NCBI GenBank assembly: GCA_035627015.1
Contig: DASPMO010000054.1
Location: 32,136-96,135 of the forward strand
Direction of reading: 5' to 3'
DNA: 64,000 nt
Source: Thermoanaerobaculia bacterium
Lineage (GTDB): Bacteria > Acidobacteriota > Thermoanaerobaculia > Gp7-AA8
Positions 269-56,882 of this stretch are shown one piece after another. A program made the translations under genes and the position numbers. Every line of letters starts with the position of its first letter. Within the stretch, counting starts at the first letter, position 1. Below the pieces are notes generated by a model. That model had not been told where the DNA came from and did no database searches. It saw only the letters and a list, made by a program, of their open reading frames with translations.

Positions 269-1482
<1,214 letters not shown>

Positions 1483-1486
<4 letters not shown>

Positions 1487-2223
1487 GCTGCTTCCTCCAT
1501 CCCCGCCAGGTCGGCCGCGGCGGAGCGGCGGTTCCTCACCGGCTCGTCGCGGCGGATGCTGCCGTCGCGCACCTCGACGATGCGCTTCGCGTAGGCCGCC
1601 ACTTCCGGCTCGTGCGTGACCAGGACGACGGTGATGCCCTGCTCGTTCAGCTCCTGAAAGAGCGCCATGACCTCGATGGTCGTGCGCGAGTCGAGGTTGC
1701 CGGTCGGCTCGTCTGCCAGGACGAGAGCCGGCTCGGTGACCAGCGCGCGTGCAATCGCGACGCGCTGCTGCTGGCCGCCCGAGAGCTCGCTCGGCTGGTG
1801 GTCGACGCGCTCGCCGAGCCCGACGCGCTCCAGCGCGGCGATGGCCAGCGCCTTCGTGTCGCGCTTCTTTCCGCTGCGGTCGTACAGCATCGGCAGCTCG
1901 ACGTTTTCCAGCGCGGTCGTGCGCGGGAGGAGGTTGAAGCCCTGGAAGACGAAGCCGATCTTCTGGTTGCGGATCGCCGCCAGCTCGTTCTTGCCGAGGC
2001 CGTCGACGCGCACGCCGTCGAGCTCGTACGAGCCGGCGGTCGGCGTGTCGAGGCAGCCGAGGAGGTTCATGAGCGTCGACTTGCCGGAGCCCGACGTGCC
2101 CATGATCGCCACGAGCTCGCCGCGTCCGATGGTCAGGTCGATGCCGCGCAGCGCGTGCACTTCGTTCGTGCCGCTGACGTACGTCTTTGTCAGGCCGCTG
2201 GTGTGGATGACGGCGTCGCTCAT
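1483..2223 (-). CDS. ABC transporter ATP-binding protein (MacB/LolD type)
   Basis: Walker [13 protein letters not shown] signature [15 protein letters not shown] and Walker [13 protein letters not shown]. Confidence 0.9.
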
Positions 2224-3458
2224 CAGAATCCCCCTCGGGGGCCGCGCTGCTGCTGCTGTCCGCCCTGGAACGGGTTGCTCGACGTCTCCGTCTGCGCCGC
2301 CTGCGGCTGGGCCGTGCCGGCGATGACCTGCAGTCCTTCCTTCACGGTGTCGCCACGGACCTCGGTGAACGAGCCGTCGGTGACGCCGGTGCGCACGCGG
2401 ATCGACTGCAGCTTGCCGTTCGCATCGACGAAGTAGAGCGTGCCTGTCATCCTGAGCGCAGCGAAGGACCCCCCGCGGTTGCGCGCTGCACGTGCGTCGG
2501 CAGGGGTTCGTTCGCCGTCTTCGCGGCTCACGATGACAGCGGGATCCGGCTTGAAGCGGAGCGCCGCGTTGGCGACCTTCAGCACGTCGTCGGCGGAGCG
2601 CGTCACGAACTTCACGCGCGCGGTCATGCCGGGGAGGAGCTTGCGCTCTGCGTTGTCGACGTTGACGACGACGGTGTAGTTGACGACGTTCTCGGTGGTG
2701 GCCGACTGCAGGCGCACCTGCTCGACGGTGCCTTCGAAGGTGTCGCGCGGCAGCGCCTGCACCGTGAACTTGACCTTCTGCCCTTCCTTGATTCCGGCGA
2801 TATCCCCCTCGCCGACTTTGGCCAGGATCTGCATCCGGGTGAGGTCGTTGGCGATGAGGAAGAGCTGCGGAGTGGAGAGGCTGGCCGCGACGGTCTGGCC
2901 GAGGTCGACGTTGCGCTCGACCACGACGCCGTCGATCGGCGCGTAGATGTTGGTGTACTCGAGGTTGCGCTTGGCGCGCTCGAGGGCCACCTGCGCCGAC
3001 TTCACGTTGGCGCGGGCGACGTCGGCCGACGAGTCGGTCATCTCGACTTCGCTGCGCGCGACGAGGCCGGCGGACGCGAGCTCGGCGTTGCGGTTGTACT
3101 CGCGCGCAGCCTGCCGCGCCTGCGCCTGGGCACGCTCGAGCGCGGCATAGGCGTCGGTGACGGCCTGCTGCTGCAGAGTCGGGTCGATGCGCGCGAGCAG
3201 CTGGCCCTTCTTCACCGTGTCGTTGAAGTCGACGAACAGCTCCGACACCTGGCCGGAGACCTGGGTGCCGACCTGGACGGTGCGGACCGCGTTGAGCGTG
3301 CCGGTCGCGGACACGCTCGCTTCGACATCACCGCGCTCGACGGCGGTGAACCGGTATGTGGTCGTCTCGCGCGCGAACGCCTGCCTGTGGACGAGCACGC
3401 CGACGACGGCCAGCACCGCGATGAGGGCAATGGCGATCGTTGTCTTTTTCTTTCTCAT
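2223..3458 (-). CDS. macA: Efflux transporter periplasmic adaptor subunit (HlyD/MacA family)
   Basis: Signal/TM anchor, coiled-coil and beta-barrel adaptor architecture. Stop/start abuts the ATPase gene. The start is taken at the second Met (MRKKKTT) because the first Met lies inside a conserved leader element. Confidence 0.8.
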
Positions 3459-3538
3459 GCGCTCTTCAACGAGGCCGAAGGTGCGCACACTTCAGAAAAA
3501 CGACGACCTGCACGCGGGTGTCATGAACTGCACGGCCA
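3459..3538 (-). promoter_or_regulatory. Conserved ~85-nt leader/promoter element, copy 1 (GTGCAGTTCATGACAC...TGAAGTgTGCGC...CCTCGTTGAAGrGCGCATG)
   Basis: Near-identical element upstream of the SLT gene at 10023-10105. The conservation runs right up to the start codon. Confidence 0.5.
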
Positions 3539-3632
3539 GACGTAGGTCGGGCTTCAGCCCGACTGGCTCTCGCGCCATCCGGCCTTCCCTGCAGACGGGC
3601 ACGCGGAGACGGGCTGAAGCCCGTCCTACGTC
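3539..3632. repeat. Family-B REP hairpin pair (ACGTAGGTCGGGCTTCAGCCCGAC ... GACGGGCTGAAGCCCGTCCTACGT)
   Basis: Two inverted copies of the 13-bp-stem/5-nt-loop hairpin. The second copy supplies the TAG stop of plsC (minus strand). Confidence 0.7.
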
Positions 3633-4345
3633 AGCGTGCTCATCGCCGCCACCGCTTCGCGCAGCCGTTCCGCGATCGCGACCGCCCCCTCTTTGTCGCT
3701 GTTGACGCCGGCGAACTGCAGCGGTTTCCCAATAACCAGCCGTAGCTTGCGCGGGCGGGGGATCCACTTCCCTTTCGGCCACGCCCGGTACGCTCCGTCG
3801 AGATAGCAGGGGACGACAGGCGTGCTCGTCCCGGCGGTGAGGAAGCCGATGCCGGGCTTGAACTTGCCGATCGCGCCGTCCGCCGTGCGCGTCCCCTCGG
3901 GAAAGAGGATGAGGATGTGGCCCGGCGCGTCGAGGAGCTGACGGCAGAGGGCGAGGCTCTGGCGCGGGTTCTCCTTGCGGTCGAAGGGCATGGCGTTGAC
4001 GACGATCGCGGAGAAGACGAGCTTGGAGAGGTTGGTGAAGAAGTAGTCGCTCGCCGCGGCGGGGAAGGCGCGGTGGATCTTGCGCAGCGGCAGCGCGGCC
4101 AGGAGCGCCGGCGCATCGAGATGGCTGCCGTGGTTGGCGACCATGACGAACGAGCCCTCGGACGGCAGGTTCTCACGGCCGACGATCTCCAGCCGGTGCC
4201 AGGCGCGCATCAGCAAACGGATGACGAGGTTCGTCAGCGACCGCGCGGCGTACACGAAGAGATCCGGATGCCGCGGAAAGTTCTTCAGCCGCTCGATCGG
4301 CGCCTGATCGAAGTCCTCGGTCGGCTGATAGCGCCACTCGTCCAT
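3626..4345 (-). CDS. plsC: 1-acyl-sn-glycerol-3-phosphate acyltransferase
   Basis: VMVANHGSHLDAPAL (HX4D acyltransferase motif) and FPEGTRT motif. The long N-terminal extension in the ORF track overlaps cdsA and is rejected. Confidence 0.8.
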   Translation of the reverse strand: MDEWRYQPTEDFDQAPIERLKNFPRHPDLFVYAARSLTNLVIRLLMRAWHRLEIVGRENLPSEGSFVMVANHGSHLDAPALLAALPLRKIHRAFPAAASDYFFTNLSKLVFSAIVVNAMPFDRKENPRQSLALCRQLLDAPGHILILFPEGTRTADGAIGKFKPGIGFLTAGTSTPVVPCYLDGAYRAWPKGKWIPRPRKLRLVIGKPLQFAGVNSDKEGAVAIAERLREAVAAMSTLT

Positions 4346-4347
4346 CT

Positions 4348-5271
4348 TCACAGTCCGCGGAAGTAGCGCACCATGTGAAAAAAGAGCGGTGCGACGTAGA
4401 TCAGCGAGTCGACGCGATCGAGCACGCCGCCGTGTCCCTCCAGCAGCGCGCCCATGTCCTTGATGCCGATGTCCCGCTTGATCACGCTGATGGAGAGGTC
4501 GCCGAGCTGGCTGCCGACGCCGACGATCACGCCGGCCAGCAGCAGCTCGCGCGTGCCGAGCTCGGGGAACGAGAAGCGCACCAGCCAGGGGAAGGCCATC
4601 GACACCGCGAACGCGCCGAGTGCCCCCGCCCAGGTCTTGTTCGGGCTGATGTTCGGGCGGAACTTGCGGCGGCCGAAGATCCGTCCGAAGGTGAACGCGG
4701 CGATGTCGCACAGCGGCACCGCGAAGAGGAGGTAGAGGAGGTAGCCGTACGCGTTGCGCGCGTTGGCCAGGAACGCGAGGTGGCCGAACATCCAGCCCAT
4801 GTAGATGAAGCCGAGCAGCGCCAGCGCGATCGGCTGCAACTGCCCCTTCGCGCGGTCGCGCGCGATCGGGATCATCAGGATCGCCGCGACGACGTACACC
4901 GGCAGCGCCATCAGCATGCCGTACCACCCCGGCTCGCCGGTGACGGGCGTGTCGATGTACGAGACCACTCCCACCGCGGCGATGCCGAGCAGCACGATGC
5001 CGGTCATCCACCAGTCGCGATAGAGGCCGGTGGCGCGGGCGAACTCGCTGAACGCGCCGAGGGCCAGCAGGGTGAAGAAGAGGATGGTGGTGAGGCGGCC
5101 GAAGTAGAGCGCGGTGAAGACGAGCGGGATGATGATCAGCCAGCCGCGATACGCCTTCCACGCGTGGTCGACGTTCTTTTTCAGCCCGAAGCGGAGCACG
5201 GCCAGCAAGGCCCCCGCGACGACGAGCAGGCCGACGAGCACGACGAGGTAGCTGCGAAAGACCGGATTCAT
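4348..5271 (-). CDS. cdsA: Phosphatidate cytidylyltransferase (CDP-diacylglycerol synthase)
   Basis: Polytopic membrane protein of 307 aa with the C-terminal CdsA signature region (SxxKRxxGxKDxGxxxPGHGGxxDRxDS: SVIKRDIGIKDMGALLEGHGGVLDRVDS). Confidence 0.9.
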   Translation of the reverse strand: MNPVFRSYLVVLVGLLVVAGALLAVLRFGLKKNVDHAWKAYRGWLIIIPLVFTALYFGRLTTILFFTLLALGAFSEFARATGLYRDWWMTGIVLLGIAAVGVVSYIDTPVTGEPGWYGMLMALPVYVVAAILMIPIARDRAKGQLQPIALALLGFIYMGWMFGHLAFLANARNAYGYLLYLLFAVPLCDIAAFTFGRIFGRRKFRPNISPNKTWAGALGAFAVSMAFPWLVRFSFPELGTRELLLAGVIVGVGSQLGDLSISVIKRDIGIKDMGALLEGHGGVLDRVDSLIYVAPLFFHMVRYFRGL

Positions 5272-5702
5272 CCGTACACCGATGATAGGACGAGCGCGGC
5301 GAGTTGTGCGATGACGGCGATGGCTGCCTGGACGATGAGCCGCTTCGCGCCGCGGGAGCGGTCGATCCAGTCGCGAGGCGCGTCTGGACCGGCTGAAGCC
5401 CGTCCTGCGTTCAGCATCCGCATCGCGCGAGGCGCGCTCGACGTAGGGCGGGCTTCAGCCCGCCCAAGCGCGCGGTCGAGCGCATCGGTCGCAATCCGCC
5501 CCGCGGCAACGTCGTCGAACAACTTGGCGTCGAGCGAGACGCGGAAGCAGAAGTAGATCGCCGCGACACCGAGGACGATCGCCGCAATGGCCACCTGGAA
5601 CGCGGCGACGATCGTCAGCCCGACGGCGAGGCCGGAGAGGCTCGCCGCGGCGCGGAGGAGCCGCGCGGTGACGATGACGTGTGCGCGCTCTTCGTCAGTC
5701 AT
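5268..5702 (-). CDS. Small membrane protein (hypothetical) carrying an in-frame family-B REP insertion
   Basis: 144 aa. Its stop overlaps the cdsA start (ATGA). The REP-derived peptide GRAEARPTSS...GRASAGP sits in a loop. Confidence 0.5.
   Translation of the reverse strand: MTDEERAHVIVTARLLRAAASLSGLAVGLTIVAAFQVAIAAIVLGVAAIYFCFRVSLDAKLFDDVAAGRIATDALDRALGRAEARPTSSAPRAMRMLNAGRASAGPDAPRDWIDRSRGAKRLIVQAAIAVIAQLAALVLSSVYG
5386..5470. repeat. Family-B REP hairpin pair (degenerate), intragenic
   Basis: GGCTGAAGCCCGTCCTGCGT ... ACGTAGGGCGGGCTTCAGCCCGCCC inside ORF 5268-5702. The reading frame is kept. Confidence 0.6.
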
Positions 5703-6930
5703 GATGCAGCACGATCGAGGGACGCGCCTTGCGCACCATCGCCGCGGCCTCGTCGAACGAGGCGGCGCGGCGCGTCGTCAGCAGCCATTCCACGACCGCG
5801 CGGGCGCTGCGCGAGTAGCCGAGGGCGCAGCAGACGAGGAGTGGCTTCGGCGCCGACTCGATGGCCTGTGCCGCGGTGCGCAGGGCGTCCGCATTCGGGA
5901 CGGTGAGATCGAGCACGGGGACGTTGCGATAGGCAGGGTGTTCCGCGCACGACAGCTCGGCGCAGAGATCGACGATCGCGGCGAACGGCTCGCCCGACGT
6001 CGGGATGCGTCCGATCCACACACCGTCGCGCACTTCCGCCGCGCCGGGATGGTTGCGCGTCCAGAGGCGCGAGTTCAGCCACGCCGCGCCGAGGTACGGC
6101 GCGAGCAGCGCGCGGGCGCCGAGGCTCAACCGGCCGCTGGACGATTTCTGGAAGCCGCGCTCGCCGACGGCGGCGTAGATCAGCGCCACGATCGCCAGCG
6201 AGGCCGCGGGCCAGCACATCCAGAGCCACGCGCCGCCGAGAGACGCCACCGCGGTGCAGAGCGCGGCGCCGGCCGCGTAGAACAGCGCCAGGCGGCGGCG
6301 TCTCCGGTCGCGCGTGAACGACAGGCGCCGCAGCGGCGACTCTTCCTCATCCGGCAGGATCCAGAGCGCGAGGAAGCCGACCGCGGCACCGGTGGGGAGA
6401 TCGATGAAGTGGTGTTGATACGTCGTCAGGATCGATACACCGATCAGTGCCATCCACCCGTGGAACAGCCAGCGCATGCGTCGCAGATGCGCGGCGAAGC
6501 GGACCCACACCACGATGAGCAGGGCGATGTGCAGCGAGGGCGCCTGGTTGAACGGCTTGTCGAAACTGGTCAGGGCGGTGAAGAGCGCGCCGAACACTCC
6601 GTCGGACTGCGGCCGCTCGAACGAGAAGCGCAGCGGGAAAGCGATGAAGCAGGCGATCGAGACGAGTTGCGCGAACAGCAGCCGCTGCCCATGGCGATCG
6701 ACTTCGCGGCGCGTCGTGCAGACGAAGAACGAGATCGCGTACAGCAGGTCGATCGACCAGTACGGCACGATGGTCCACGGCACGAAGGGAATGTGCCGTT
6801 CCCACGCGAAGGCGACCACGCCGACGTCCGCCCGCGTGCTGGCCAGCCAGTTCGCGAAGCCGTAGCTGGCGAAGAAGAACGGGCCGAGAAAAGCCAGCCA
6901 CGCGGCGGCGCGCTTCCAGGGACGCTTCAC
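5695..6930 (-). CDS. Membrane protein with SMS/IPC-synthase-like (PAP2_C) catalytic motifs fused to a C-terminal dual-specificity (PTPMT1-like) phosphatase domain
   Basis: GTG start in a GTGA overlap with the upstream gene. The polytopic N-terminal domain carries ...APSLH...(about 40 aa)...YQHHFIDLPTG (an SGH ... HYTxD-like H/H/D triad). The C-terminus has VCCALGYSRS, a CX5R(S) PTP/DSP P-loop. Confidence 0.6.
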   Translation of the reverse strand: MKRPWKRAAAWLAFLGPFFFASYGFANWLASTRADVGVVAFAWERHIPFVPWTIVPYWSIDLLYAISFFVCTTRREVDRHGQRLLFAQLVSIACFIAFPLRFSFERPQSDGVFGALFTALTSFDKPFNQAPSLHIALLIVVWVRFAAHLRRMRWLFHGWMALIGVSILTTYQHHFIDLPTGAAVGFLALWILPDEEESPLRRLSFTRDRRRRRLALFYAAGAALCTAVASLGGAWLWMCWPAASLAIVALIYAAVGERGFQKSSSGRLSLGARALLAPYLGAAWLNSRLWTRNHPGAAEVRDGVWIGRIPTSGEPFAAIVDLCAELSCAEHPAYRNVPVLDLTVPNADALRTAAQAIESAPKPLLVCCALGYSRSARAVVEWLLTTRRAASFDEAAAMVRKARPSIVLHHD

Positions 6931-8663
6931 GCCCGCACCGATAGGGAGACGGTGAAGATCCCCCAGTCGTCGATGCGCTGCTCCAGCTTGCGGAAGCCCG
7001 CGCGCTCCACGAGCTGGTCCATCTCCCCCTGCGAGCGGCGCCGCATCACCCACGCCTCGCCGCCGCGGTGGCTGGTCAGCGCGCGCGCGATCAGCTCGAG
7101 CTGCGGGTGCCACGGCTGGCCGGTATAGACGAGGTATCCCCCCGCCGGGACGGCATCGGCGATCCCCGCGAGCGAGCGCGCCACGAGGTCGTTGTCGCCG
7201 AAGAGCTCGTAGAGTCCGGAGACGATGGCCAGCGTCGGACGCGGGGTCACCGCGGCGAGGGAGGCGCGGTCGAAGGCGTCGCCCTGCACGAAGCGCGCGA
7301 CGTCACCCAGTCCCTTCGACTGGATCATGGCCGCGCCCTGGCGCACATTCAGCTCGCTGTAATCGCGCAGGAGGATCGAGTCGGGACGCGTGGCCGCGCC
7401 GTTCAGCGCCTCGAGCACGTAGCGTCCGTGTCCGGCGGCGACGTCCATCACATGTACCGGCTGGCCCGCCTCGCGCAGCTTCTCCATCGCCAGGCGGATC
7501 AGCTCCTCGACGTGCACCTTGCGCCGGCGGATACCGCGCCAGCCGATCGACTGCAGGTAGTTCCTGTCGATCACGCGGCCCAGGAGCGAGGGGCTGTCGG
7601 GCTGGTTGCGGTAGACGTAATCGAGCGTGCTGCCGGAGTCGAAGCCCGTCTCGTGGCCGAGCTTCAGGCCGTTCGACAACGCGCCGCCGAGGCGCATGCC
7701 CGCGCGCGTCGCCGCCCAGTACAGGCCGCGCGGCGAGAACGGCGAGAGCGGCGTGGCCAGTTCGTCCGCCTCCTGCCGCGTCGGGCCGGTCCGGTGCGAC
7801 TGCGTGAGGTCGACGGTGACCGGCGGCTCGGCGAAGCGCTTTTCGATGAATGTACGCGCGAGCTGCACCGCTTTGGCGCGCTCTTTTTCGCCGAGGGTGT
7901 CGTGGTAGAAGCCGGGCAGCACGTGCCGCTCCTTGACCGTGCTGCCGAGGCGGTTGAAGAAGTCGTGCTGCGGCTTGTGGTGCACGACGAAGTCGGAGCC
8001 GGAGATGAGCAACTGCAGCGGCACGGTGATGGCCTGCGCGTCGGCCACCACCCGCTCCGCGGCCGCGTACAGCTCCAGGAGGATGTTGACGGAGATGTCG
8101 CGCGTGATGAGCGGGTCGGCGTCGAACGACTCGATGCGCCGCGGGTCGTGGGTGAGGAACTTCGACTTCACGTAGCTCTTCACCACGAAGTTGCCGCGCA
8201 GCTTCTGCATCAGCGCCAGCCCCGGCCGCGCCAGCGGGACGTACAGCTTGACCTTGAACGCGGGCGAGGCCAGGACGGCGCAGCGCACCTTCGGCGCGTA
8301 GTCGTGCAGCCACGTCGCGGCCAGCACGGCGCCGACGCTCTGCGCGATCACGGCCACGTTCTCGATGCCGTGCGTGCCGGCGATCCCGCCGACGAAGTCG
8401 TTTACGTCGCGCACGGAGGTGGCGAAGCTCGGGCTGTGTCCGCGCTCGCCGGGCGAGCGGCCGTGGCCGCGCGCGTCCCACGCGTAGAAGGCATACCCGG
8501 GAAGATCCAGCTCGTCGATGAGATGCGCCATGCGTCCGGAGTGCTCGTGCCCGCGGTGGAACAGCACGATGGCGCCTTTGGCATTCTCGGCCGGCCAGTG
8601 CCGGTAGAACAGCTCCACGCCGTCGAACGTGCGGAAGCTCTTCTCCTCAGACGGACGATTCAC
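6927..8663 (-). CDS. Bifunctional alpha/beta-hydrolase (lysophospholipase/monoglyceride-lipase-like) - class I SAM-dependent methyltransferase
   Basis: N-terminus: HRGHEHSGR...AQSVGA nucleophile elbow and DTLGE. C-terminus: VMDVAAGHGRY SAM-binding motif I. 578 aa. Overlaps both neighbouring genes. Confidence 0.75.
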   Translation of the reverse strand: MNRPSEEKSFRTFDGVELFYRHWPAENAKGAIVLFHRGHEHSGRMAHLIDELDLPGYAFYAWDARGHGRSPGERGHSPSFATSVRDVNDFVGGIAGTHGIENVAVIAQSVGAVLAATWLHDYAPKVRCAVLASPAFKVKLYVPLARPGLALMQKLRGNFVVKSYVKSKFLTHDPRRIESFDADPLITRDISVNILLELYAAAERVVADAQAITVPLQLLISGSDFVVHHKPQHDFFNRLGSTVKERHVLPGFYHDTLGEKERAKAVQLARTFIEKRFAEPPVTVDLTQSHRTGPTRQEADELATPLSPFSPRGLYWAATRAGMRLGGALSNGLKLGHETGFDSGSTLDYVYRNQPDSPSLLGRVIDRNYLQSIGWRGIRRRKVHVEELIRLAMEKLREAGQPVHVMDVAAGHGRYVLEALNGAATRPDSILLRDYSELNVRQGAAMIQSKGLGDVARFVQGDAFDRASLAAVTPRPTLAIVSGLYELFGDNDLVARSLAGIADAVPAGGYLVYTGQPWHPQLELIARALTSHRGGEAWVMRRRSQGEMDQLVERAGFRKLEQRIDDWGIFTVSLSVRA

Positions 8664-9237
8664 GCAGCCCTCCTCGGATTCGATTGACGATCGTGACCGC
8701 GACCAGCGCGGCGATGCCCCACAGGATCGCGTCGTGCAGCGGCCAGCGCAGCGCCACGGCGATGGCCAGCAGGGAGAAGACGAACGCGCGGTCGCTCTTT
8801 CCCATCGGCCCGTCGTAGCGCCGGGCGGCGCCGGTCATCACCGCCACGACGCCGGTCATCTCCGACAGCGAGGCGGCGAAGATGACGGCCGAGACGCTCC
8901 ACCAGGTGAACGGCGCGACGAACGCGAACGGCAGGTAGAGCGCGGCGTCGGAGACGACGTCGGTCAGCTCGTTCAGGTACGCGCCGAGGTGCGACTTCTG
9001 ACCGAACTCGCGCGCCAGCATGCCGTCGACGGCGTTCAGGCCCATGCGCACGAACATCCACAGCGGCACGAGCGCGAACCACTGCCGCGGCGCGCTCACG
9101 AGGAACGCGCCGAGGGCGATGGAGACGAGGCAGGCGAAGACCGTGACCTGATTCGCCGTCACGCCGAGGGCCTGCAGGCGCCGCACGAGCGGCCGCAGGA
9201 ACGCCTGAAACCGCGTTTTCAGGGTGTAGATCGACAT
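8647..9237 (-). CDS. CDP-alcohol phosphatidyltransferase (PgsA/PIP-synthase-like, 196 aa)
   Basis: NAVDGMLAREFGQKSHLGAYLNELTDVVSD matches D-G-x2-A-R-x8-G-x3-D-x3-D. About 6 TM segments. Confidence 0.85.
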   Translation of the reverse strand: MSIYTLKTRFQAFLRPLVRRLQALGVTANQVTVFACLVSIALGAFLVSAPRQWFALVPLWMFVRMGLNAVDGMLAREFGQKSHLGAYLNELTDVVSDAALYLPFAFVAPFTWWSVSAVIFAASLSEMTGVVAVMTGAARRYDGPMGKSDRAFVFSLLAIAVALRWPLHDAILWGIAALVAVTIVNRIRGGLRESSV

Positions 9238-9260
9238 CGGACGTGAGCGCGATTATGCAC

Positions 9261-10022
9261 TCAGGCGTTGATGTCGAATCCGTACTTTTCCGGCTCCTTG
9301 GCGATGCGCGCGGCGGCGATCATCAGCGGCACGTAGTCGGCCGTCTCCTGCGGGAGCAGCTCGGCGATGGCGTAGTAGTCATCCTCCGACCCCTTCTCCG
9401 AGCCGGTCACGCTGCGCATGATGCGTCCGACGCGATTCTCGCCGGTGTTGTACGCGGCCGCGGCCAGGTACCAGGAGCCGAAGCGGTCGTACAGGTCGCC
9501 GAGATACGACAGCGCGGCCTCGGTCGACTTTTCCGGATCGGTGCGCTCGTCGACTTTGCGGTCGACGGTCAGGCCGTAGCGCTCCGCGGTCGGCTCGATG
9601 AACTGCCACAACCCCTTCGCCTTCGCGGCCGACGTTGCCACGGGGTTGAAGCCCGACTCGATCATGGCCAGGTAGACGAGGTCCTGCGGCATCCCGCGCG
9701 CGGCGAGCTTCTCGCTGATCATCGGCGCGTACTTCGGCATCCGCTTCAGGAAGACCGTGAAGTCGTCGCGGCCGTCGGTCTGGAAGAACTCGACCCAGCG
9801 ATCGACACGCGGATGGTCGAGGTTGGGGAGATCCCACCCGGTCGTTTGCTCGGGTGGAGCGGCGGCATGCAGGCTACCGACCGCCACCGGCGCGCTCTCG
9901 ACCACGGCCGGCGGGCTGAAACCCGCCGCTCCACCGGGCCGATTCCCGAGTCCGGCGACGAACGACGCGCCGAACAGCGCCGCGAGGGCAAGGGGGATTG
10001 CTGCGTCTTTCGTCTTCATCAT
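9261..10022 (-). CDS. Lytic transglycosylase, SLT domain (MltD/Slt-like), secreted
   Basis: Signal peptide MMKTKDAAIPLALAALFGASFVAG. SLT motifs MIESGFNP...GLWQF...AAYNTGENRV. Confidence 0.8.
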   Translation of the reverse strand: MMKTKDAAIPLALAALFGASFVAGLGNRPGGAAGFSPPAVVESAPVAVGSLHAAAPPEQTTGWDLPNLDHPRVDRWVEFFQTDGRDDFTVFLKRMPKYAPMISEKLAARGMPQDLVYLAMIESGFNPVATSAAKAKGLWQFIEPTAERYGLTVDRKVDERTDPEKSTEAALSYLGDLYDRFGSWYLAAAAYNTGENRVGRIMRSVTGSEKGSEDDYYAIAELLPQETADYVPLMIAAARIAKEPEKYGFDINA

Positions 10023-10105
10023 GCGCCCTTCAACGAGGGCCGCGAGGCGCATACTTCACCTGGGTAACGATATGCACGAACGTGTCATGAACTGCACCGG
10101 AGTGA
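10023..10105 (-). promoter_or_regulatory. Conserved ~85-nt leader/promoter element, copy 2
   Basis: GTGCAGTTCATGACACGTTCGTGCAT...TGAAGTATGCGCC...CCCTCGTTGAAGGGCGCATG aligns nearly base-for-base with 3459-3538. Confidence 0.5.
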
Positions 10106-10502
10106 GCCCCGATCTCTGTCTGCGGCGGTTCATCGGCGACGGTGCCGAGCCGGTCACGACCGCCGACCTGCGCATCCGCCATCTTCTCGCCGCGATTGCC
10201 GCGGGACGCTGGCCGGAGCTTCGTGTTGTGACGAAGGGAGAAGGCGAGGCCATGCGGAGGGCGGACGACGAGTCGCGCCTCGACGCGGGCGAGCGCGAGC
10301 TGCTGGAGCTGCTGGCGGCCGGCGACTTCGAGAGCGCGCTGATGTATTACTGGCAGACGCTCGGGAACTTCTCGTCGCTCGTGCGGGAGCGCGCGATCCA
10401 TCGCGGGGCGCGCCTCTGCAGAGCGCTCAATGACGGTCACGATCCTGACCGGATCTCCGAGCAGTTGCGCGACTCGCCTGGCGCGATGGCCGTCGTCAAC
10501 GA

Positions 10503-10889
10503 TTGGGCCCTTTACGCGTGCGCTACGAGTTGCAGACCGCGTACGAGCTGGGGCGCTGGGACCGCACGGTGCTCGTCCTGCCGCCGCTGCATTCACACCT
10601 CGACGTCATCGACAGCGATTCGCTCCTGCAGATGTTCCCGCGCGTCATCTGGGCCGACACGCTGCACACGGAGTCGCTGACCGACGCGTTCGTGCTGAAG
10701 GACCTCCTCGCGCGCATTGACGCCATCGCGGCGCTGCCGGATGAGGAGCGGCGCCGCCTCATCGACCCCGTTCTGCGCGACGAGGCATTTCCCATCGACC
10801 TGGAGTCGATCGCGCAGGCGTATGAGCTCCAGACGCGCATGGAAGCGATGCAGCAGGACGGCGACGACCGGCTTCGCTACTACGGCTGA
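10503..10889 (+). CDS. Hypothetical protein; possibly the C-terminal half of a larger frameshifted ORF starting near 10252
   Basis: 128-aa ORF with coding-like composition. An upstream ORF in another frame (10252-10520, MRRADDESRLDAGERELLELL...) reads straight into it, suggesting a frameshift or sequencing error near 10500. Confidence 0.3.
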   Translation: MGPLRVRYELQTAYELGRWDRTVLVLPPLHSHLDVIDSDSLLQMFPRVIWADTLHTESLTDAFVLKDLLARIDAIAALPDEERRRLIDPVLRDEAFPIDLESIAQAYELQTRMEAMQQDGDDRLRYYG

Positions 10890-11003
10890 GGATGACATGA
10901 TGGGCGACTCGTTGCGCGCGAGCGCGCTGGATCAGTGGGAGACGGTGCGCAGGCTGCGCGCGATAGTTGAAGCAGAGCCGGAGCGTTTCATCCTCCGGCC
11001 GCG

Positions 11004-12461
11004 TTACGGGCCATTCGTCGTGCGCAAAGCCTGATCCTCGGACGCCGCATGCTGCCCGAGAAAGGCCCGGATGTCCGCGATGGCCTGTTCCAGCTCCCGC
11101 TGTTCGCGTGCGAATGCCGGTACGTCGCCGCCGCAGTGCGGGCAGGTGGTCGTCCCCGCGTAGACGTACTGCTTGCAGCCGTAGCAGACCTCGAGGGTCG
11201 GGGGGACGCGGCCGGGGCGGTCGAGTTGCGGCTCCTTCATCTCCCACACCGGCGGCTCGGCGATGGTGCGGGGGCCGTCGCCGCCGTCCAGCGGCTCGGT
11301 GATGAGCGCGAAGCGGCCCTGGTCGAACGGCGTGCCCGGCGCTTCCTCCGTCTTCACGATGCGCTCGCGGAGGCCCTGCTTGGCCAGTGTGTCCACGCGG
11401 TAGTGGCAGTAGGGATTGTTGCCGGGGCGGCCGAAGAGCACCGTCGACGTCCAGGTGCAGCCGCCGCGGCAGACCTCCGCGTAGTAACAGTCGCGGCAGC
11501 GGCCCCACAGCTCGTGCACCTGCCGGTCGCGCGAGAAGCGGATCTCGCGGCTGTACGTCCAGATGTCCTCGATGGTCATGTCGCGCACGTTGCCGCCGGT
11601 GAACTGCGCCGTCGGCAGCGAGGGGCAGCCCTTGATCGCGCCGTCGGCCTCGATGCCGAGGACGGCCTGCCCCGCGGCGCAGCCGCTGAAGTGCTTCTCC
11701 CCATTGCCGAGCCGCCACTTGTGCTCGTAGGGGCCGAAGTAGCCGATGTTGTTGCCGGCCTGCATCCCCACGCCGAGCGAGCGTGCCTCGTCGTAGATCT
11801 CGCCGAGGAGCGGCATCAGCTCGCCCAGCTCGTACGGCTGGAGGAGCAGGTGGTCGTTGTCGACGGCGTTGCCCATGGCCACGGTGAGCTGGATCTGCCA
11901 GCCGCGGGCGCCGCGCGCCGCGATCTCGTGCAGGATGCCGCGGAGCTGGGGCATGGTGCGGCTGCCGATCTGCGTGTTACAGCCGCTGGGGATGCCGTGC
12001 TCGCGCAGCAGCTCCAGCGCCTGCATCGCCGAGCGGAACGAGCCCTTCACGCCGCGGATCTCGTCGTGCAGCTCTTCCAGCCCGTCCACCGAGACGCCGC
12101 ACGTACCGAGGCCCGCCGCCTTCGCCGCGCGAACGCGCTCGGCGGTCAGCGCGCGGCCGCCCGTCTGCATCGAGGCCAGCATGCCGTGGCTGGTGATGCG
12201 GGCGATGATGTCGGTCCAGTCGCGGCGCAGATAGGCCTCGCCGCCGATGAGTGTGATCTCGCGTGTGCCGAGGCGCGCCAGCTGGTCGACGACCTCGAAG
12301 CACTCCGTGGTGGACAGCTCGTCCGGGCGCACCTTTCCCGCGCGCGAGCCGCAGTGGGCGCATTTCAGGTTGCAGGCGAGGGTGATCTCCCACACCACGT
12401 GCACCGGATGCGGGTGCAGGAGATCGTCCGCGCTGAGAGCACGGGGCGGGGGGGCGGACAC
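11004..12461 (-). CDS. Radical SAM enzyme with a SPASM domain and a C-terminal zinc-ribbon extension (peptide-maturase-like)
   Basis: CNLKCAHC (CX3CX2C) within a WEITLACNLKCAHCGS motif. SPASM Cys cluster GCAAG...GCPSL...CRDCYYAEVCRGGC...NPYC. C-terminal CYGCKQ...CPHCGG. Confidence 0.85.
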   Translation of the reverse strand: MSAPPPRALSADDLLHPHPVHVVWEITLACNLKCAHCGSRAGKVRPDELSTTECFEVVDQLARLGTREITLIGGEAYLRRDWTDIIARITSHGMLASMQTGGRALTAERVRAAKAAGLGTCGVSVDGLEELHDEIRGVKGSFRSAMQALELLREHGIPSGCNTQIGSRTMPQLRGILHEIAARGARGWQIQLTVAMGNAVDNDHLLLQPYELGELMPLLGEIYDEARSLGVGMQAGNNIGYFGPYEHKWRLGNGEKHFSGCAAGQAVLGIEADGAIKGCPSLPTAQFTGGNVRDMTIEDIWTYSREIRFSRDRQVHELWGRCRDCYYAEVCRGGCTWTSTVLFGRPGNNPYCHYRVDTLAKQGLRERIVKTEEAPGTPFDQGRFALITEPLDGGDGPRTIAEPPVWEMKEPQLDRPGRVPPTLEVCYGCKQYVYAGTTTCPHCGGDVPAFAREQRELEQAIADIRAFLGQHAASEDQALRTTNGP

Positions 12462-12473
12462 CGTGTCCGCCCG

Positions 12474-12755
12474 TTACGCCGAGCCGAGGTGCTGCTTGAG
12501 CCGCGAGATCGCGCCCTGCAGGTCACTGTTCGCCACGGATTCGGCCTGCTGCAGGAGCTGCTGCAGCTCCTCACGGCTCGCGCCGCCCGAGATGGCCTTG
12601 TCGACGATGACGCCGTACAACGGCTGGATGTGCTGGTCGCGTGCTGCCTCGAGCGCCTGCCGCATCTGATCCGGATCGTTGCTCTGAAGCGCCTCGTTGA
12701 TCCAGACGCCGTAAAGGGGACGGGGCCTTGGTCCACCACCATAAGAAGACGACAT
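12474..12755 (-). CDS. 93-aa small protein with tandem PLYGV(W/I)(I/V)(N/D)(E/K)A repeats; candidate substrate/precursor of the adjacent rSAM-SPASM enzyme
   Basis: Strong SD (GAGGAGAA, 5 nt, ATG). 12 nt upstream of the rSAM start on the same strand. Two roughly 30-aa repeats: RPLYGVWINEALQSNDPDQMRQALEAAR / QPLYGVIVDKAISGGASREELQQLLQQAE. Confidence 0.55.
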   Translation of the reverse strand: MSSSYGGGPRPRPLYGVWINEALQSNDPDQMRQALEAARDQHIQPLYGVIVDKAISGGASREELQQLLQQAESVANSDLQGAISRLKQHLGSA

Positions 12756-31440: not shown

Positions 31441-31530
31441 TATGGAGTGCGGCAGCGCCAGCTGCCGCTTTCGATGCCGCAGCGCCAGCTGCGGCGGGGG
31501 CGGCGGCCCTAATGCAGCGCCCGGCGCATC
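31441..31530. repeat. Family-A palindromic element, copy 2
   Basis: TATGGAGTGCGGCAGCGCCAGCTGCCGCTTTCGATGCCGCAGCGCCAGCTGCGGCG... It abuts the PilZ-2 start and overlaps the stop of the SLT gene. Confidence 0.6.
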
Positions 31531-32174
31531 CGCACCGAGGCGATGTACGACGTCCGGAACCCCTCGCGATAGCGGCGCGTGCGCCGGTTCACCTTGGTGA
31601 TGTAGTTCTTCGTCTCCGTGAACGGCGGGATACCGCCGAAGCGGGCCACGTTTCCTTCGCCGGCGTTGTAAGCGGCCAGGGCGATGGTCTCATCGTCGAA
31701 GCGGTCCAGCAGGTAACGGAAGTAGCGCGTCCCGGCGGCGATGTTCTTCTCCGGGTCGAACGGATCGTCGACGCCGAGGAGCGCCGCCGTGCTGGGGACG
31801 ATCTGCATCAGCCCCTGCGCGCTCTTGCCGGAGACGAGCTTCGGGCGGAAGTCGGACTCGGTGTGCACCATGGCCGCGACCAGCTCCGGCGCCAGGTCGT
31901 TCTTCCGCGCCTCTCGGTAAATGATGTCTCCATAGGGGACGTTGCTGCGGAAGTAGTCCTCCTTGAAGACCTCCAGGCTGAGCGGACGCGCGACCGGCGA
32001 GAGGAACTGCTGGCGCACCGAGTCGGTGATGAGCGGGAGCGCGCTCTGTTGCGTCACCGGCTGCTTCGTCACTTGCGCCGGACGCAAATCGAGCTTCTTC
32101 GTGGCGGTCTTGATGTCGACGGCGGCCAGCGCCAGCGGAATGCCGAGCAGGATCGCCGCGACGCGCGCGGACAT
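31509..32174 (-). CDS. Lytic transglycosylase, SLT domain, secreted (second copy in window)
   Basis: Signal MSARVAAILLGIPLALAAVD. MVHTESDFRP...GLMQI...AAYNAGEGNV. Confidence 0.75.
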   Translation of the reverse strand: MSARVAAILLGIPLALAAVDIKTATKKLDLRPAQVTKQPVTQQSALPLITDSVRQQFLSPVARPLSLEVFKEDYFRSNVPYGDIIYREARKNDLAPELVAAMVHTESDFRPKLVSGKSAQGLMQIVPSTAALLGVDDPFDPEKNIAAGTRYFRYLLDRFDDETIALAAYNAGEGNVARFGGIPPFTETKNYITKVNRRTRRYREGFRTSYIASVRMRRALH

Positions 32175-32354
32175 GCGGACGGTGGCGCGGAACAGCTTGC
32201 GGCGGGAGGAGTGGTGCTGGCACGAGCAGACCACCCGCCAATCGGCTCCTCCGCGCCATTTCGGGGTGTCGTTTCGTAGACTGCGGAGCATCACGGACTT
32301 GCACCAAGGGCAAAAGGCGGACCATCACTGCGAAATAACTGACGCGGCTGGTGT

Positions 32355-33272
32355 TTATGGGACTCTGGTCCCGGACGTGTCGGTAACGGTCTCTTCCGTA
32401 GTGGTCGTTTCGGGGGTCCCGGTGGTCTCGGTCGTTTCCGTGGTCTCGCTCGCGGTCCCGGTCTCCGGCGCCAGATCGGTGTCCGTCGCGGGCGCGGTAC
32501 CGGTCGTTTCGGTGGTTGCGGTGGTCTCCGTGGTCTCGGTCTTCGGCTCGGCGGCGGGCTTCTTCTCCGTCAGCACCTCGCGCTCGAAGAGATAGCCCCA
32601 GCGCTTCATGCGCGAGAGGATCATCCGCTGCCGCGCGCGCAGGCGCCTGTTCGGGCTGCCCGGATTCATCACGCGAGGGTTGGGGAGGCAGCCCGCGAGC
32701 AGCGCGGCCTCGCGCGTCGACAGCGCGGACGCGGACTTGCCGAAGTAGTGGCGCGCCGCCGCCTCGGCGCCGTAAACGCGCTCGCCCATCTCCACGACGT
32801 TCAGGTAGATCTCCAGGATGCGCTTCTTGGACAGGTGCTTCTCGAGGGCGCGGGCGATGAAGTACTCGCGCACTTTGCGCAGCGGGTTGCGCGAGGGGGA
32901 GAGGTAGAGGTTTTTCGCGAGCTGCTGGGTGATGGTGGAGCCGCCGTGCGTGACCTTGCCGCGCTTCCAGTTGCGGTCGAAGGCCTCTTTCATGGCCTCG
33001 ACGTCCACTCCTTCATGGTCGTAGAAGGCGTTGTCCTCGGCCACGAGGACGCCGCGGCGCAGGTAGGGCGAGATCTTCCCGTACGGCACCCAGGTCCACT
33101 TCAGCGCGTCGCTCTTCCCTTCGCGGCGCAGCGTCTTCTTGCGCTGCTCCATGAAGGCGGTCGTTTTCGGGCGCTCGGTGGCGAGCCTGGCCACGTCGGG
33201 GAAGGTGATCCACTCCCAGGCGAGCCACGCCACGAGCAGGAGCAGGACGGCCAGGAGGATGCGCTTCAGCAA
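32355..33272 (-). CDS. mtgA: Monofunctional biosynthetic peptidoglycan transglycosylase (GT51) with a Thr/Glu-rich low-complexity tail
   Basis: N-terminal TM. EDNAFYDHEGVD...GGSTITQQLAKN GT51 motifs. C-terminal (TETTE)n tail. Confidence 0.85.
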   Translation of the reverse strand: MLKRILLAVLLLLVAWLAWEWITFPDVARLATERPKTTAFMEQRKKTLRREGKSDALKWTWVPYGKISPYLRRGVLVAEDNAFYDHEGVDVEAMKEAFDRNWKRGKVTHGGSTITQQLAKNLYLSPSRNPLRKVREYFIARALEKHLSKKRILEIYLNVVEMGERVYGAEAAARHYFGKSASALSTREAALLAGCLPNPRVMNPGSPNRRLRARQRMILSRMKRWGYLFEREVLTEKKPAAEPKTETTETTATTETTGTAPATDTDLAPETGTASETTETTETTGTPETTTTEETVTDTSGTRVP

Positions 33273-33890: not shown

Positions 33891-34204
33891 AGCCCGTCCT
33901 GGTCCTGACCACCACCGGCGCGGACTTTGACGCGCGCGCCCTCGCGCATGCTCTGGTCGAGGCGCGCGTGGCCGCCTGTGTGAACATCGTCGAGCGCATC
34001 CACTCGGTCTACCGGTGGGAAGGCCGCGTGGCCGATGACGCCGAGCAGTTGCTGATCATCAAGACCAGCGACGAGCGGGTCGCGGCGCTGCGGGAGGAGC
34101 TGTTCAGGCGGCATCCCTACGACGTGCCGGAGTTCGTGGTCGTGCCGGTCGCGGAGACGTCAGACGCCTACGGCGCGTGGCTGCTTTCGTCGGTAGCGCC
34201 GTAA
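33887..34204 (+). CDS. cutA: Divalent-cation tolerance protein CutA
   Basis: 105 aa ...VLTTTGADFDARALAHALVEARVAACVNIV...YRWEG...; TTG start overlapping the previous stop. Confidence 0.75.
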   Translation: MKPVLVLTTTGADFDARALAHALVEARVAACVNIVERIHSVYRWEGRVADDAEQLLIIKTSDERVAALREELFRRHPYDVPEFVVVPVAETSDAYGAWLLSSVAP

Positions 34205-43980: not shown

Positions 43981-44919
43981 GTGGCGAAGTCGCAGGTCGT
44001 CATCCCAACCGATGCAGTGGACGTGATCCTGGGGTTCGGCGACCGCGAGGTGCGCCTGACGAACCTCCGCAAGCCGTTCTGGAAGAAGCTCGGCATCACC
44101 AAGCGCGACCTGCTGCAGTACTACGCCGATGTCTCGCAGTGGCTGCTGCCGCACCTGCACGACCGGGCCATGGTCATGAAGCGCTACCCCAACGGCGCGG
44201 AGGGGGACTTCTTCTACATGAAGCGCGCGCCCGACCCGCGGCCGGAGTGGATCGAGATCTGCGACATCGACCACGGCTCGGCGGGGCGCATCAACTTCCC
44301 GATCGTGCAGGACCTGCCGTCGCTGCTCTGGCTGATCAACCTCGGCTGTATCGATCTCAACCCGTGGTACTCGCGCTGCGGCGACACGGACCGCCCCGAC
44401 TTTCTGCACTTTGATCTGGATCCGGGTCCGGGCGCGAACTTCGCCCGCGTGCGCGAGGTGGCCCTGCGCACGCGCGACATCCTCGCCTCGCTGCAGATCC
44501 CGACGTATCCGAAGACCACCGGCTCGAAGGGCATCCACGTCTACATCCCCATCAAGCTCGGGCCGACGCAGAAGGAAGTGTGGGCCTTCGCCAAGGCCCT
44601 GGCCCTCGAGCTCGAGAAACGCCATCCGAAGATCATCACCGCCGAGTACCGCAAGGTGAACCGTCCCTACGGCCGCGTGCTCGTCGACTACAACCAGAAC
44701 GCGTGGGGCCGCACGCTGGCCTCCATCTACTCCATCCGCCCGACCTCGTTCGCCGGCGCGTCGATGCCGGTGACGTGGGAGGAAGTGGAAGGGGGCGTGA
44801 GCGTGGACGACTTCCGCATCGACAACGCCCTCGAGCGGCTGCGCGAGGTGGGCGACCTCTGGAAGCCGGTCGTGGCGAAGACGAAGCGCGTCGACCTTTA
44901 CAAGGTGTTCCGCAAATGA
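43981..44919 (+). CDS. NHEJ LigD polymerase/primase domain protein (stand-alone)
   Basis: ...VMKRYPNGAEGDFFYMKRAP...LHFDLDP...KTTGSKGIHVYIPI... blocks typical of LigD Pol/PrimPol. Confidence 0.85.
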   Translation: MAKSQVVIPTDAVDVILGFGDREVRLTNLRKPFWKKLGITKRDLLQYYADVSQWLLPHLHDRAMVMKRYPNGAEGDFFYMKRAPDPRPEWIEICDIDHGSAGRINFPIVQDLPSLLWLINLGCIDLNPWYSRCGDTDRPDFLHFDLDPGPGANFARVREVALRTRDILASLQIPTYPKTTGSKGIHVYIPIKLGPTQKEVWAFAKALALELEKRHPKIITAEYRKVNRPYGRVLVDYNQNAWGRTLASIYSIRPTSFAGASMPVTWEEVEGGVSVDDFRIDNALERLREVGDLWKPVVAKTKRVDLYKVFRK

Positions 44920-51528: not shown

Positions 51529-52316
51529 GGCTGGCACCTGGGGCACCAGTAGGTTCCCCGCGCGTCCTTGCCCTGTTTGGCGTACTCGATCGGCGTGCCG
51601 CAGCGCCGGCAGGGTTTGCGGCCGCGGCTGTAGACGTACTGCTTCTGGCTCGGGTCGAGGCTGAAGGTGGTGATGCGGGCGGGGGAGCGTTTCTGGATGT
51701 TGGCCAGCATCACCTTCCGGGAGAGCTTGAGGATCGTGTCGAGCTGTTCGTCGGTGAGGTCGCGCACTTTCGCGAACGGGCTGACCCGCGACATGAACAG
51801 CAGCTCGCTCTTGTACTCGTTGCCGATGCCGGAGACGACGCGCTGGTTGAGGAGCACGTCGGCGATCTCTTCGTCGGGCCGGGCGCGGATGCGGCGCACG
51901 GCCTCTTCCTGGTCGAACGTCTCGCCGAGAAAGTCGGGGCCGATGTTCAGGAGGTCGTCCTGCCGCTCCAGCGAGCGGGAGTCGTGCATCTCCGCCACCG
52001 GGACGTTGAACGCCACCGCCACCCAGGCGTCGGTCTCGAGGATGATGCGCATGTCGCTGAAGCGCTTCCGCCACCGCTCGCCCGGCTTGTAGAGGTGCCA
52101 CGAGCCGTTCATGCGCATGTGCGTGCGCAGGTGGAGGTCGCCGGAGAAGTGCATGAGCAGGTTCTTTCCGGCGGCGTCGACGCGCTCGACGGTGCGGCCG
52201 GTCATCTCCACGCGCGCGAGCTGCGGGAAGACGGTCTCGAAGCGGAGGATGGTGCGTCCCGCCAGCGCCGCGTGCAGGGTGCGCGCGGCGCGGTGGATGG
52301 TATCGCCCTCAGGCAT
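51525..52316 (-). CDS. Fpg/Nei-family DNA glycosylase (formamidopyrimidine-DNA glycosylase / endonuclease VIII-like)
   Basis: N-terminal MPEGDTIH (catalytic Pro2/Glu3). C-terminal zinc finger CRRCG...CPRCQ. Its start overlaps the lhr stop by 8 bp. Confidence 0.85.
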   Translation of the reverse strand: MPEGDTIHRAARTLHAALAGRTILRFETVFPQLARVEMTGRTVERVDAAGKNLLMHFSGDLHLRTHMRMNGSWHLYKPGERWRKRFSDMRIILETDAWVAVAFNVPVAEMHDSRSLERQDDLLNIGPDFLGETFDQEEAVRRIRARPDEEIADVLLNQRVVSGIGNEYKSELLFMSRVSPFAKVRDLTDEQLDTILKLSRKVMLANIQKRSPARITTFSLDPSQKQYVYSRGRKPCRRCGTPIEYAKQGKDARGTYWCPRCQP

Positions 52317-56793: not shown

Positions 56794-56882
56794 GTGAGCG
56801 CCGTCACGCCGCTGGACTTTCCGGCGCGACGACTGCAAGAATAGTGAACAGCCCCCAGCGCAAGAGAGTGAAGGAATGGGAG

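Follow-up and report, generated by a model that had tools for sequence, protein, structure and literature searches.

A widespread six-gene cluster with a PAP2-dual-specificity phosphatase fusion and an atypical CDP-alcohol transferase, a putative accessory phospholipid module

Results

A six-gene operon of lipid enzymes

We analyzed a 64,000-nucleotide stretch of DNA (hereafter the window; G+C content ~68%) from contig DASPMO010000054.1 of a Thermoanaerobaculia bacterium (Acidobacteriota; GenBank assembly GCA_035627015.1), and focused on an operon of six closely packed genes at window positions 3626-9237. Proteins encoded in the window match, exactly or almost exactly, those of metagenome-assembled Thermoanaerobaculia genomes. 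The six genes are arranged in tandem on the minus strand. The first gene encodes a CDP-alcohol phosphatidyltransferase-like membrane protein of 196 residues (8647-9237, (-); PF01066). It is followed by the gene for a 578-residue bifunctional alpha/beta hydrolase and S-adenosylmethionine (SAM) methyltransferase (6927-8663, (-); Hydrolase_4 and Methyltransf_20; hereafter Hyd-MT), and by that for a 411-residue fusion of PAP2 and dual-specificity phosphatase (DSP) domains (5695-6930, (-); PAP2 and DSPc), which starts with GTG and has its stop codon at 5695-5697. The remaining genes encode a small membrane protein of 144 residues that belongs to no Pfam or NCBIfam family (5268-5702, (-)), a CdsA-type phosphatidate cytidylyltransferase paralogue of 307 residues (4348-5271, (-); PF01148) and, last, a PlsC/Aas-like lysophospholipid acyltransferase of 239 residues (3626-4345, (-); PF01553), which starts at either ATG 4345 or GTG 4351.

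A previous interpretation of this DNA, made from the letters alone (the sequence-only reading), had described six overlapping minus-strand genes in this interval, and all of the open reading frames (ORFs) are found where it placed them. It had given overlaps of 4-17 bp for all junctions. This holds for the first four, which in operon order overlap by 17, 4, 8 and 4 nucleotides (nt). At the CdsA/acyltransferase junction the outcome depends on the start codon of the acyltransferase: GTG 4351 gives a 4-nt overlap, ATG 4345 a 2-nt gap. The 4-nt overlaps at the Hyd-MT/PAP2-DSP and PAP2-DSP/small-protein junctions are also present in one Pseudomonas and one Stenotrophomonas locus (n = 2 examined). 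The 411-residue start of the fusion protein was chosen because a longer, 472-residue ORF enters the preceding gene and because homologues begin at the shorter position. The G+C content at third codon positions (GC3) is 0.82-0.95 in all six ORFs, and orthologues of the operon proteins, at 30-79% identity, occur in 80 fetched loci, the best 80 of at least 575, which served as our synteny sample. Thus, the high GC3 and the orthologues indicate that the six ORFs are real genes. The domains had originally been read from motifs; Pfam hidden Markov models (HMMs) agree for every domain called and establish both enzyme fusions, Hydrolase_4-Methyltransf_20 and PAP2-DSPc, as real.

The PAP2-DSP fusion protein

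Residues 1-195 of the fusion protein (6346-6930, (-)) comprise a six-helix, Aur1/PAP2_3-like PAP2 membrane domain, which scores 29.5 bits against PF01569 PAP2 (cut-off 27.2). The C2 motif is present as PSLH (H134) and the C3 motif as S166-x6-H173-x3-D177, in which the segment QHHFID supplies H173, H174 and D177. P131, S132, H134, S166, H173 and D177 vary little or not at all among relatives. In a comparison of 50 relatives (35-62% identity), N128, P131, H134, S166, Q172, H173, H174 and D177 of the membrane domain and D341, C368, G371 and R374 of the phosphatase domain are invariant. The His/His/Asp triad proposed earlier for the N-terminal domain is therefore borne out, both by the HMM assignment to PAP2 and by its invariance. 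Of the C1 motif (KxxxxxxRP), R106-P107 is kept; the Lys position is occupied by P99, and R101 is invariant nearby. Since this RP remnant of the phosphatase C1 motif is retained, the PAP2 domain may carry out plain hydrolysis.

The sequence-only reading had likened this domain to sphingomyelin and inositol phosphorylceramide synthases, of which the Aur1 part stands and the sphingomyelin synthase part does not. PF14378 PAP2_3, the Aur1/Ipt1 family, is matched by 30 of the 50 diverse relatives (best E 2.4e-11, several above cut-off), with the window protein itself at 20.6 bits against a cut-off of 27; generic PAP2 is matched by 31/50 (best E 1.2e-7). PF14360 PAP2_C, the sphingomyelin synthase family, does not match the window protein and matches one relative in 50 (E 1e-4). 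H134, H173 and D177 are spaced by 39 and 4 residues, exactly as H255, H294 and D298 are in Aur1, compared with 43 and 4 in SMSr (PMC12122681). In the AlphaFold model (mean pLDDT, the predicted local distance difference test, 78.7), eight membrane helices precede a DSP fold; pLDDT is ~90 for the phosphatase domain and 50-80 for the membrane domain. The triad is placed as in Aur1 and probably lies near the non-cytoplasmic surface. By predicted structure, family model and triad spacing, the PAP2 domain appears closest to the Aur1/SMSr-type phosphotransferases.

There are differences from both groups of PAP2 relatives. In contrast to Aur1-Kei1 and SMSr (PMC12122681), the window protein is bacterial, carries two extra helices after rather than before the catalytic core, is fused to a phosphatase predicted to be cytoplasmic and keeps the RP remnant of C1; ceramide is unlikely in most of its hosts. 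It resembles E. coli PgpB and other PAP2 lipid phosphate phosphatases (LpxE and LPP1) in its six-helix PAP2 fold, in having motifs C2 and C3 and in its probably periplasm-facing active site, but the structural scores are lower (7.9-8.9), the C1 Lys is absent and C2 reads PSLH. The canonical form of C2 is PSGH.

The rest of the protein (5695-6345, (-)) contains transmembrane (TM) helices TM7 and TM8 (residues ~209-255) and the DSP domain (residues ~291-411, nt 5698-6060), which matches PF00782 DSPc with 31.3 bits. The DSP fold, a CX5R P-loop and an upstream acidic residue are all present: the P-loop, VCCALGYSRS, contains C368-A-L-G-Y-S-R374, and the candidate general acid is D341, invariant in the 50 relatives. 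A CX5R dual-specificity phosphatase had been predicted, and C368 and R374 are indeed invariant among relatives. The proposed connection to PTPMT1 fared less well. Bacterial and mammalian phosphatidylglycerophosphate (PGP) phosphatases of the PTPMT1 type have basic P-loop residues and a WPD loop (PMC3576122). Here, there are no basic residues within the CALGYSR loop, and the acid loop, VLDLTVP, has no WPD motif. The protein is thus not a PTPMT1 orthologue, though PTPMT1 is among its nearest solved relatives. Likewise, the DSP fold had been described as that of the Bacteroides phosphatidylinositol phosphate (PIP) phosphatase; that enzyme, BT_1525, is PgpA-like (PMC9246714). Residues 216-408, which span TM7, TM8 and the DSP domain, align to the N-terminal 221 positions of NCBIfam PRK12361 (E 2e-14), an uncharacterised 546-residue model whose remainder we take to be a diacylglycerol-kinase-like domain. 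If that is correct, a lipid would be the more likely substrate of this phosphatase module. In the window protein the partner of the DSP is instead PAP2, and the score is 52.6 bits against a cut-off of 505.

From the charge distribution and predicted helices, the loops bearing the PAP2 motifs lie on the side poor in Lys and Arg, and the Arg-rich linker at residues 194-213 lies on the opposite side. As this linker is placed on the cytoplasmic side, the phosphatase domain is predicted to be cytoplasmic. The periplasm-facing PAP2 triad and the cytoplasmic DSP are thus most likely on opposite faces of the membrane.

An atypical CDP-alcohol transferase

The transferase matches the CDP-alcohol phosphatidyltransferase family (PF01066 CDP-OH_P_transf, 36 bits versus a cut-off of 22). 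The signature of this family is D1xxD2GxxAR...GxxxD3xxxD4, with the four aspartates holding two catalytic metal ions (PMC6506517). The window protein has N68xxD71GxxAR(x8)G85xxxN89xxxD93 followed by V94; Asn is found at D1 and D3 and the remaining signature is intact. This N-D-N-D motif, which the sequence-only reading missed, is identical in 70/70 full-length cluster orthologues. The residue numbering coincides, by chance, with that of Mycobacterium tuberculosis PgsA1 (D68, D71, D89 and D93), the best match in the Protein Data Bank (PDB; E 4e-6). In PgsA1, R94 is critical for activity and is conserved in enzymes that use inositol phosphate (PMC6506517). The equivalent position after D4 is V, I or L in all 70 orthologues.

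A PgsA- or PIP-synthase-like identity had been assigned to this protein, and it is not supported by the comparison with curated models, as every characterised equivalog cut-off is failed and N68, N89 and V94 replace the expected Asp and Arg residues. The best NCBIfam match is archaetidylinositol-phosphate synthase (72 bits versus a cut-off of 180), then PIP synthase (50 versus 170) and PgsA (TIGR00560; 24 versus 109), the weakest of the three transferase matches; the BT_1523 type scores 16 versus 350. The inositol-type equivalog models are NF045883, NF040950 and NF052561. By these scores the archaetidylinositol-phosphate synthases and PIP synthases are nearest to the transferase, with PgsA much more distant. 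Since every score falls well short of its curated cut-off, the protein is best regarded as an atypical member of the superfamily that fits no characterised synthase. It is kept in ~73/80 loci, at ~56% identity across phyla. An inositol-phosphate synthase was not found among the ~40 window ORFs scanned, and a 20-locus subset revealed no extra conserved family.

Hydrolase-methyltransferase, CdsA, acyltransferase and small membrane protein

In the Hyd-MT protein, residues 27-261 (nt 7881-8585) match Hydrolase_4 (PF12146) with 248 bits and contain a Ser-Asp-His triad. Residues 270-577 (nt 6933-7856) match Methyltransf_20 (PF12147) with 508 bits over the whole model, and have SAM-binding motif I along with the conserved segments D[IV]AAGHGRY, LRD[YF]S and GDAFD. 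No TM segment or signal peptide was seen in the 578 residues. The methyltransferase domain gave no match in sequence searches of the PDB, whether used as a single sequence or a profile; its fold resembles the uncharacterised Bordetella protein 3ocj and small-molecule methyltransferases. We found no paper on Methyltransf_20 and no characterised member of the family in the literature.

The operon CdsA matches CTP_transf_1 (PF01148) with 193 bits (E 1e-56) and scores 99 bits against PRK11624, for which the cut-off is 385. Its GHGGxLDRxDS signature is retained by 77 cluster-linked copies, and the gene is always adjacent to the cluster. This CdsA appears to be a divergent paralogue. The acyltransferase matches PF01553 with 76 bits (E 3e-21) and shares conserved NHxSHxD and FPEGTR motifs with the cluster copies (75 copies). 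In NCBIfam it fits best to the acyltransferase domain of acyl-ACP--phospholipid O-acyltransferase (E 2e-22), with 52 bits versus a cut-off of 103 for TIGR00530; judged by these profiles, it resembles the lysophospholipid-acylating domain of Aas more than PlsC. Three segments of the small protein are hydrophobic, a pair of TM segments near the N terminus and a single one near the C terminus, and no Pfam or NCBIfam family matches it. A homologue follows directly after the PAP2-DSP gene in 57 loci (jackhmmer within the fetched loci), and the alignment contains the conserved motifs R-[VIL]-x-[LF]-D...[LI]-F and R-x-W-x-x-R-x-x-G. Taken together, the enzymes of the operon keep their catalytic family signatures, apart from the two Asn residues in the transferase.

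Distribution, synteny and natural fusions

A sequence search performed without a word index returned 488 clusters (at 50% identity, E <1e-30) for the PAP2-DSP protein. Most of these are full-length fusions, down to 37% identity. Relatives were confirmed in at least 575 species, with one genome scanned per species. The fusions had been called unusual; the architecture extends far beyond the Thermoanaerobaculia metagenome-assembled genome (MAG) and is recognised in public annotation, where NCBI names the proteins 'phosphatase PAP2/dual specificity phosphatase family protein' and 'bifunctional alpha/beta hydrolase/class I SAM-dependent methyltransferase'. The components all come from known superfamilies and the fusions are already named, in generic terms. 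The best 80 loci include many Pseudomonas species, Stenotrophomonas, Xanthomonas, Lysobacter, Pseudoxanthomonas, Zoogloea, Alcaligenaceae, Hydrogenophilales, an alphaproteobacterial MAG and Acidobacteriota.

The order transferase, Hyd-MT, PAP2-DSP and small protein, followed by acyltransferase and CdsA, is found in ~75/80 loci, which come from Acidobacteriota and several proteobacterial classes. The first three genes are in identical order wherever the contig permits, and their products are 55-70% identical between Acidobacteriota and Gammaproteobacteria. CdsA and the acyltransferase are just ~30-40% identical to the proteobacterial copies, where their mutual order is swapped. This contrast in identity, together with the swapped order, suggests a mobile and strongly constrained core of three genes with helper genes that evolve more freely. 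Three relatives (P0128, P0217 and P0249) are natural PAP2-DSP-acyltransferase fusions and a fourth (P0386) fuses the transferase with the hydrolase-methyltransferase, which ties the operon members together. Clustering of all ORFs from 20 diverse loci revealed no further gene family common across lineages. The flanks consist of unrelated or lineage-specific housekeeping genes, such as purH and purD in Xanthomonadaceae and flagellar genes in P. nitroreducens. In one acidobacterial locus (L005), a gene for a PfkB-family sugar/polyol kinase (4919-5842, (+)) adjoins the acyltransferase gene with a 1-nt gap; this kinase could make a phosphorylated alcohol. As a general member of the cluster it was rejected, being absent from the other 79 loci and from the window.

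In P. fluorescens-group loci (including L006, L023, L027, L029 and L030), conserved non-coding blocks such as GTGACTAAACCCCCATAAACACG...CCATCACTGGTG and TTTTTCGCGGG..CACGGACAAGGAAGCGTCAC are found within 160 nt upstream of the transferase gene, and may be a regulator site or leader. A Pho-box-like pattern was not recognisable by eye in the upstream regions of the Pseudomonas clusters.

Flanking genes and other features of the window

In the window, the gene for an SLT lytic transglycosylase (9261-10052, (-)) ends 23 nt upstream of the operon, and a MacA/MacB-type efflux set (269-3488, (-)), consisting of an HlyD adaptor, an ABC ATPase and a permease with MacB_PCD and FtsX domains, lies 137 nt downstream. 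Across the 80 related loci, neither the SLT gene nor the MacAB-type genes are found beside the cluster, and we therefore place them outside the unit.

Elsewhere in the window, a radical SAM protein with a SPASM domain (485 residues, 11004-12461, (-)) is encoded directly downstream of a 93-residue DUF1843 protein (12474-12755, (-)). The pair looks like a peptide and its maturase, as in ribosomally synthesized and post-translationally modified peptide systems. A second SLT-domain lytic transglycosylase lies beside a monofunctional peptidoglycan glycosyltransferase (Transgly; 31509-32294, (-) and 32355-33272, (-)). For two large membrane proteins encoded in tandem (34160-36535, (-) and 36629-38737, (-)), the sole family match is to the C terminus of YfhO. 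A stand-alone LigD primase-polymerase domain protein of 312 residues (43981-44919, (+)) comes after a DJ-1/PfpI protein, and a 1509-residue ORF (52309-56838, (-)) has gene-like codon composition.

Discussion

Proposed pathway

The safest statement is that the operon is a dedicated, self-contained accessory phospholipid module. Beyond this, we tentatively propose, at somewhat less than even odds, that the module makes and then uses a dedicated glycerophospholipid through the following steps, whose order we infer from the functions of the nearest characterised relatives and from topology. On the cytoplasmic face, the acyltransferase would acylate a lyso-lipid and CdsA would turn the resulting phosphatidate into CDP-diacylglycerol. 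The N-D-N-D transferase would condense this with a phosphorylated alcohol X to give phosphatidyl-X-phosphate, in the manner of PgsA and the PIP synthases. The membrane-anchored cytoplasmic DSP would then strip the terminal phosphate, the role that PTPMT1 has for phosphatidylglycerophosphate; a PGP phosphatase of the DSP fold has bacterial precedent (PMC3576122). Once the lipid had reached the outer leaflet, the Aur1/SMSr-like His-His-Asp triad of the PAP2 domain would transfer the phospho-headgroup to an envelope acceptor, or else cleave it and free diacylglycerol. The soluble lipase-methyltransferase could tailor the lipid or a precursor by deacylation and methylation, the acyltransferase could re-acylate the product, and the small membrane protein might be an accessory subunit. 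The sequence-only reading had put forward a headgroup-lipid pathway supplied by a CdsA of its own; as a general idea this remains reasonable, with the inositol-lipid candidate of that reading weakened.

Several observations weigh against this proposal. The role given to the hydrolase-methyltransferase is its weakest step, and the nearest structural relatives of the methyltransferase domain act on small soluble molecules. The cluster encodes no flippase. With two of its four metal-binding aspartates lost, the transferase may be impaired or may work with a different donor or acceptor. Two loci, in Pseudomonas oryzagri and an alphaproteobacterial MAG (L026 and L048, ~8170-11300 in each), contain solely the Hyd-MT and PAP2-DSP pair, with the transferase, CdsA and acyltransferase not found within 10 kb. 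This implies that the core pair can act on ordinary cellular lipids without a dedicated synthase. The neighbours at L026, L048 and L078 give no hint of a headgroup. We also found no functional study of, or experiment on, the cluster in the full-text literature; in the single publication that we found to mention it, it figures as an unstudied 'membrane phospholipid remodelling module', variable among P. protegens relatives (PMC13541209).

Alternative explanations

A second phosphatidylglycerol pathway would assign the same genes to familiar chemistry. CdsA would supply CDP-diacylglycerol, a divergent PgsA would use glycerol-3-phosphate, the DSP would be the inner-face PGP phosphatase, the PAP2 domain would be an outer-face, PgpB-like phosphatase for PGP or undecaprenyl pyrophosphate, and the hydrolase and acyltransferase would remodel chains. 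We consider this unlikely: the PgsA score is the lowest of the three transferase matches (24 versus 109), no PgsA has a motif like N-D-N-D, the basic P-loop residues and the WPD motif of PTPMT1 are both missing, the PAP2 domain fits PAP2_3/Aur1 better than the hydrolases, and the methyltransferase is left without a role. Moreover, Pseudomonas already has pgsA, pgpA/B/C and cdsA. The cluster might instead serve lipid turnover or remodelling, with no new headgroup made. PAP2 and DSP would dephosphorylate phosphatidate, lysophosphatidate or PGP, and the lipase would free fatty acid from mono- or diacylglycerol; the methyltransferase would methylate a released product (e.g., to a fatty-acid methyl ester), and the acyltransferase, CdsA and transferase would rebuild phospholipid in a Lands-type cycle. 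The two-gene forms are accounted for in this way, but the conservation of so peculiar a transferase (~56% identity in ~73/80 loci) and the placement of two phosphatase-type domains on opposite faces are left unexplained, and no fatty-acid methyltransferase family matched the methyltransferase domain. We give this scheme a chance that is lower again.

For an inositol-lipid pathway of the Bacteroides BT_1522-1526 type, in which the transferase would be a PIP synthase, the DSP a PIP phosphatase and the PAP2 domain an Aur1-like inositol-phosphoryl transferase, the matches are suggestive: the best NCBIfam and PDB hits of the transferase are archaetidylinositol-phosphate/PIP synthases, the phosphatidylinositol dihydroceramide synthase BT_1522 is also Aur1-like, and our PAP2 domain has the Aur1 triad spacing and an Aur1-like fold (PMC12122681). 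The scores, however, are far under the equivalog cut-offs (72/180, 50/170 and 16/350), V/I/L stands in place of R94, and both D68 and D89 have become Asn (PMC6506517). The missing Arg, the lack of a linked myo-inositol-phosphate synthase (none among the window ORFs scanned, and no extra family in the subset of 20 of the 80 loci) and the PgpA-like, rather than DSP, nature of the Bacteroides phosphatase make this pathway very unlikely. Neither Pseudomonas nor Xanthomonas is known to make inositol lipids or ceramide, which also counts against it. Finally, high-GC DNA yields many long spurious ORFs on both strands, and the operon could in principle be a gene-calling artefact or a chance juxtaposition of housekeeping lipid genes. 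The GC3 of 0.82-0.95, the HMM matches, the ordered orthologues in ~75 loci across phyla and the natural fusions leave this with a negligible probability, and we regard it as ruled out by the synteny and fusion data.

Comparison with known systems

The closest parallel to the proposed dedicated-lipid module is BT_1522-BT_1526 of Bacteroides thetaiotaomicron (PMC9246714), likewise a compact operon with a CDP-alcohol transferase that gives a phosphorylated product, a dedicated phosphatase and an Aur1-like PAP2 protein that moves the headgroup to a lipid. That operon includes an inositol-phosphate synthase (BT_1526) and a separate PgpA-like phosphatase, whereas the cluster described here has no such synthase, a DSP fused to PAP2 and an N-D-N-D transferase without the inositol-phosphate Arg. 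It adds its own CdsA, acyltransferase, lipase-methyltransferase and small membrane protein, and many of its hosts are not known as sphingolipid makers. The PgsA and PTPMT1 pair of mitochondria and Rhodopirellula baltica (PMC3576122) offers the same succession of a CDP-diacylglycerol-using synthase and a membrane-anchored Cys-X5-Arg lipid phosphatase of the DSP fold. Here, the P-loop is CALGYSR without basic residues, there is no WPD motif, the anchor is a two-TM segment after PAP2, and the synthase is not PgsA-like by score.

Implications

The interest of the cluster lies in its breadth and in the N-D-N-D transferase more than in rarity in one genome. Phospholipid synthesis in bacteria is usually seen as a solved map. 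The module nevertheless combines an unusual trio, an Asp-poor CDP-alcohol transferase, an Aur1-like site and a Cys-phosphatase predicted on opposite membrane faces, and an uncharacterised methyltransferase family fused to a lipase. It is tightly conserved in hundreds of species, including the tractable and clinically or agriculturally important Pseudomonas, Stenotrophomonas and Xanthomonas; since Pseudomonas carries the cluster, the proposal is directly testable. At its most specific, the proposal is of an undescribed pathway in Pseudomonas, Xanthomonas, Stenotrophomonas and Acidobacteriota. In it, the N-D-N-D transferase would attach a new, possibly methylated, alcohol to CDP-diacylglycerol. 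The PAP2-DSP protein would finish the lipid on the inner face and, working outside like a bacterial counterpart of Aur1, donate its phospho-headgroup to an acceptor in the envelope. We see this as possible, though the odds are against it. If a new headgroup is indeed made or transferred, the cluster would represent a new lipid class or envelope modification in well-studied organisms, and would provide the first function for the Pfam family Methyltransf_20.

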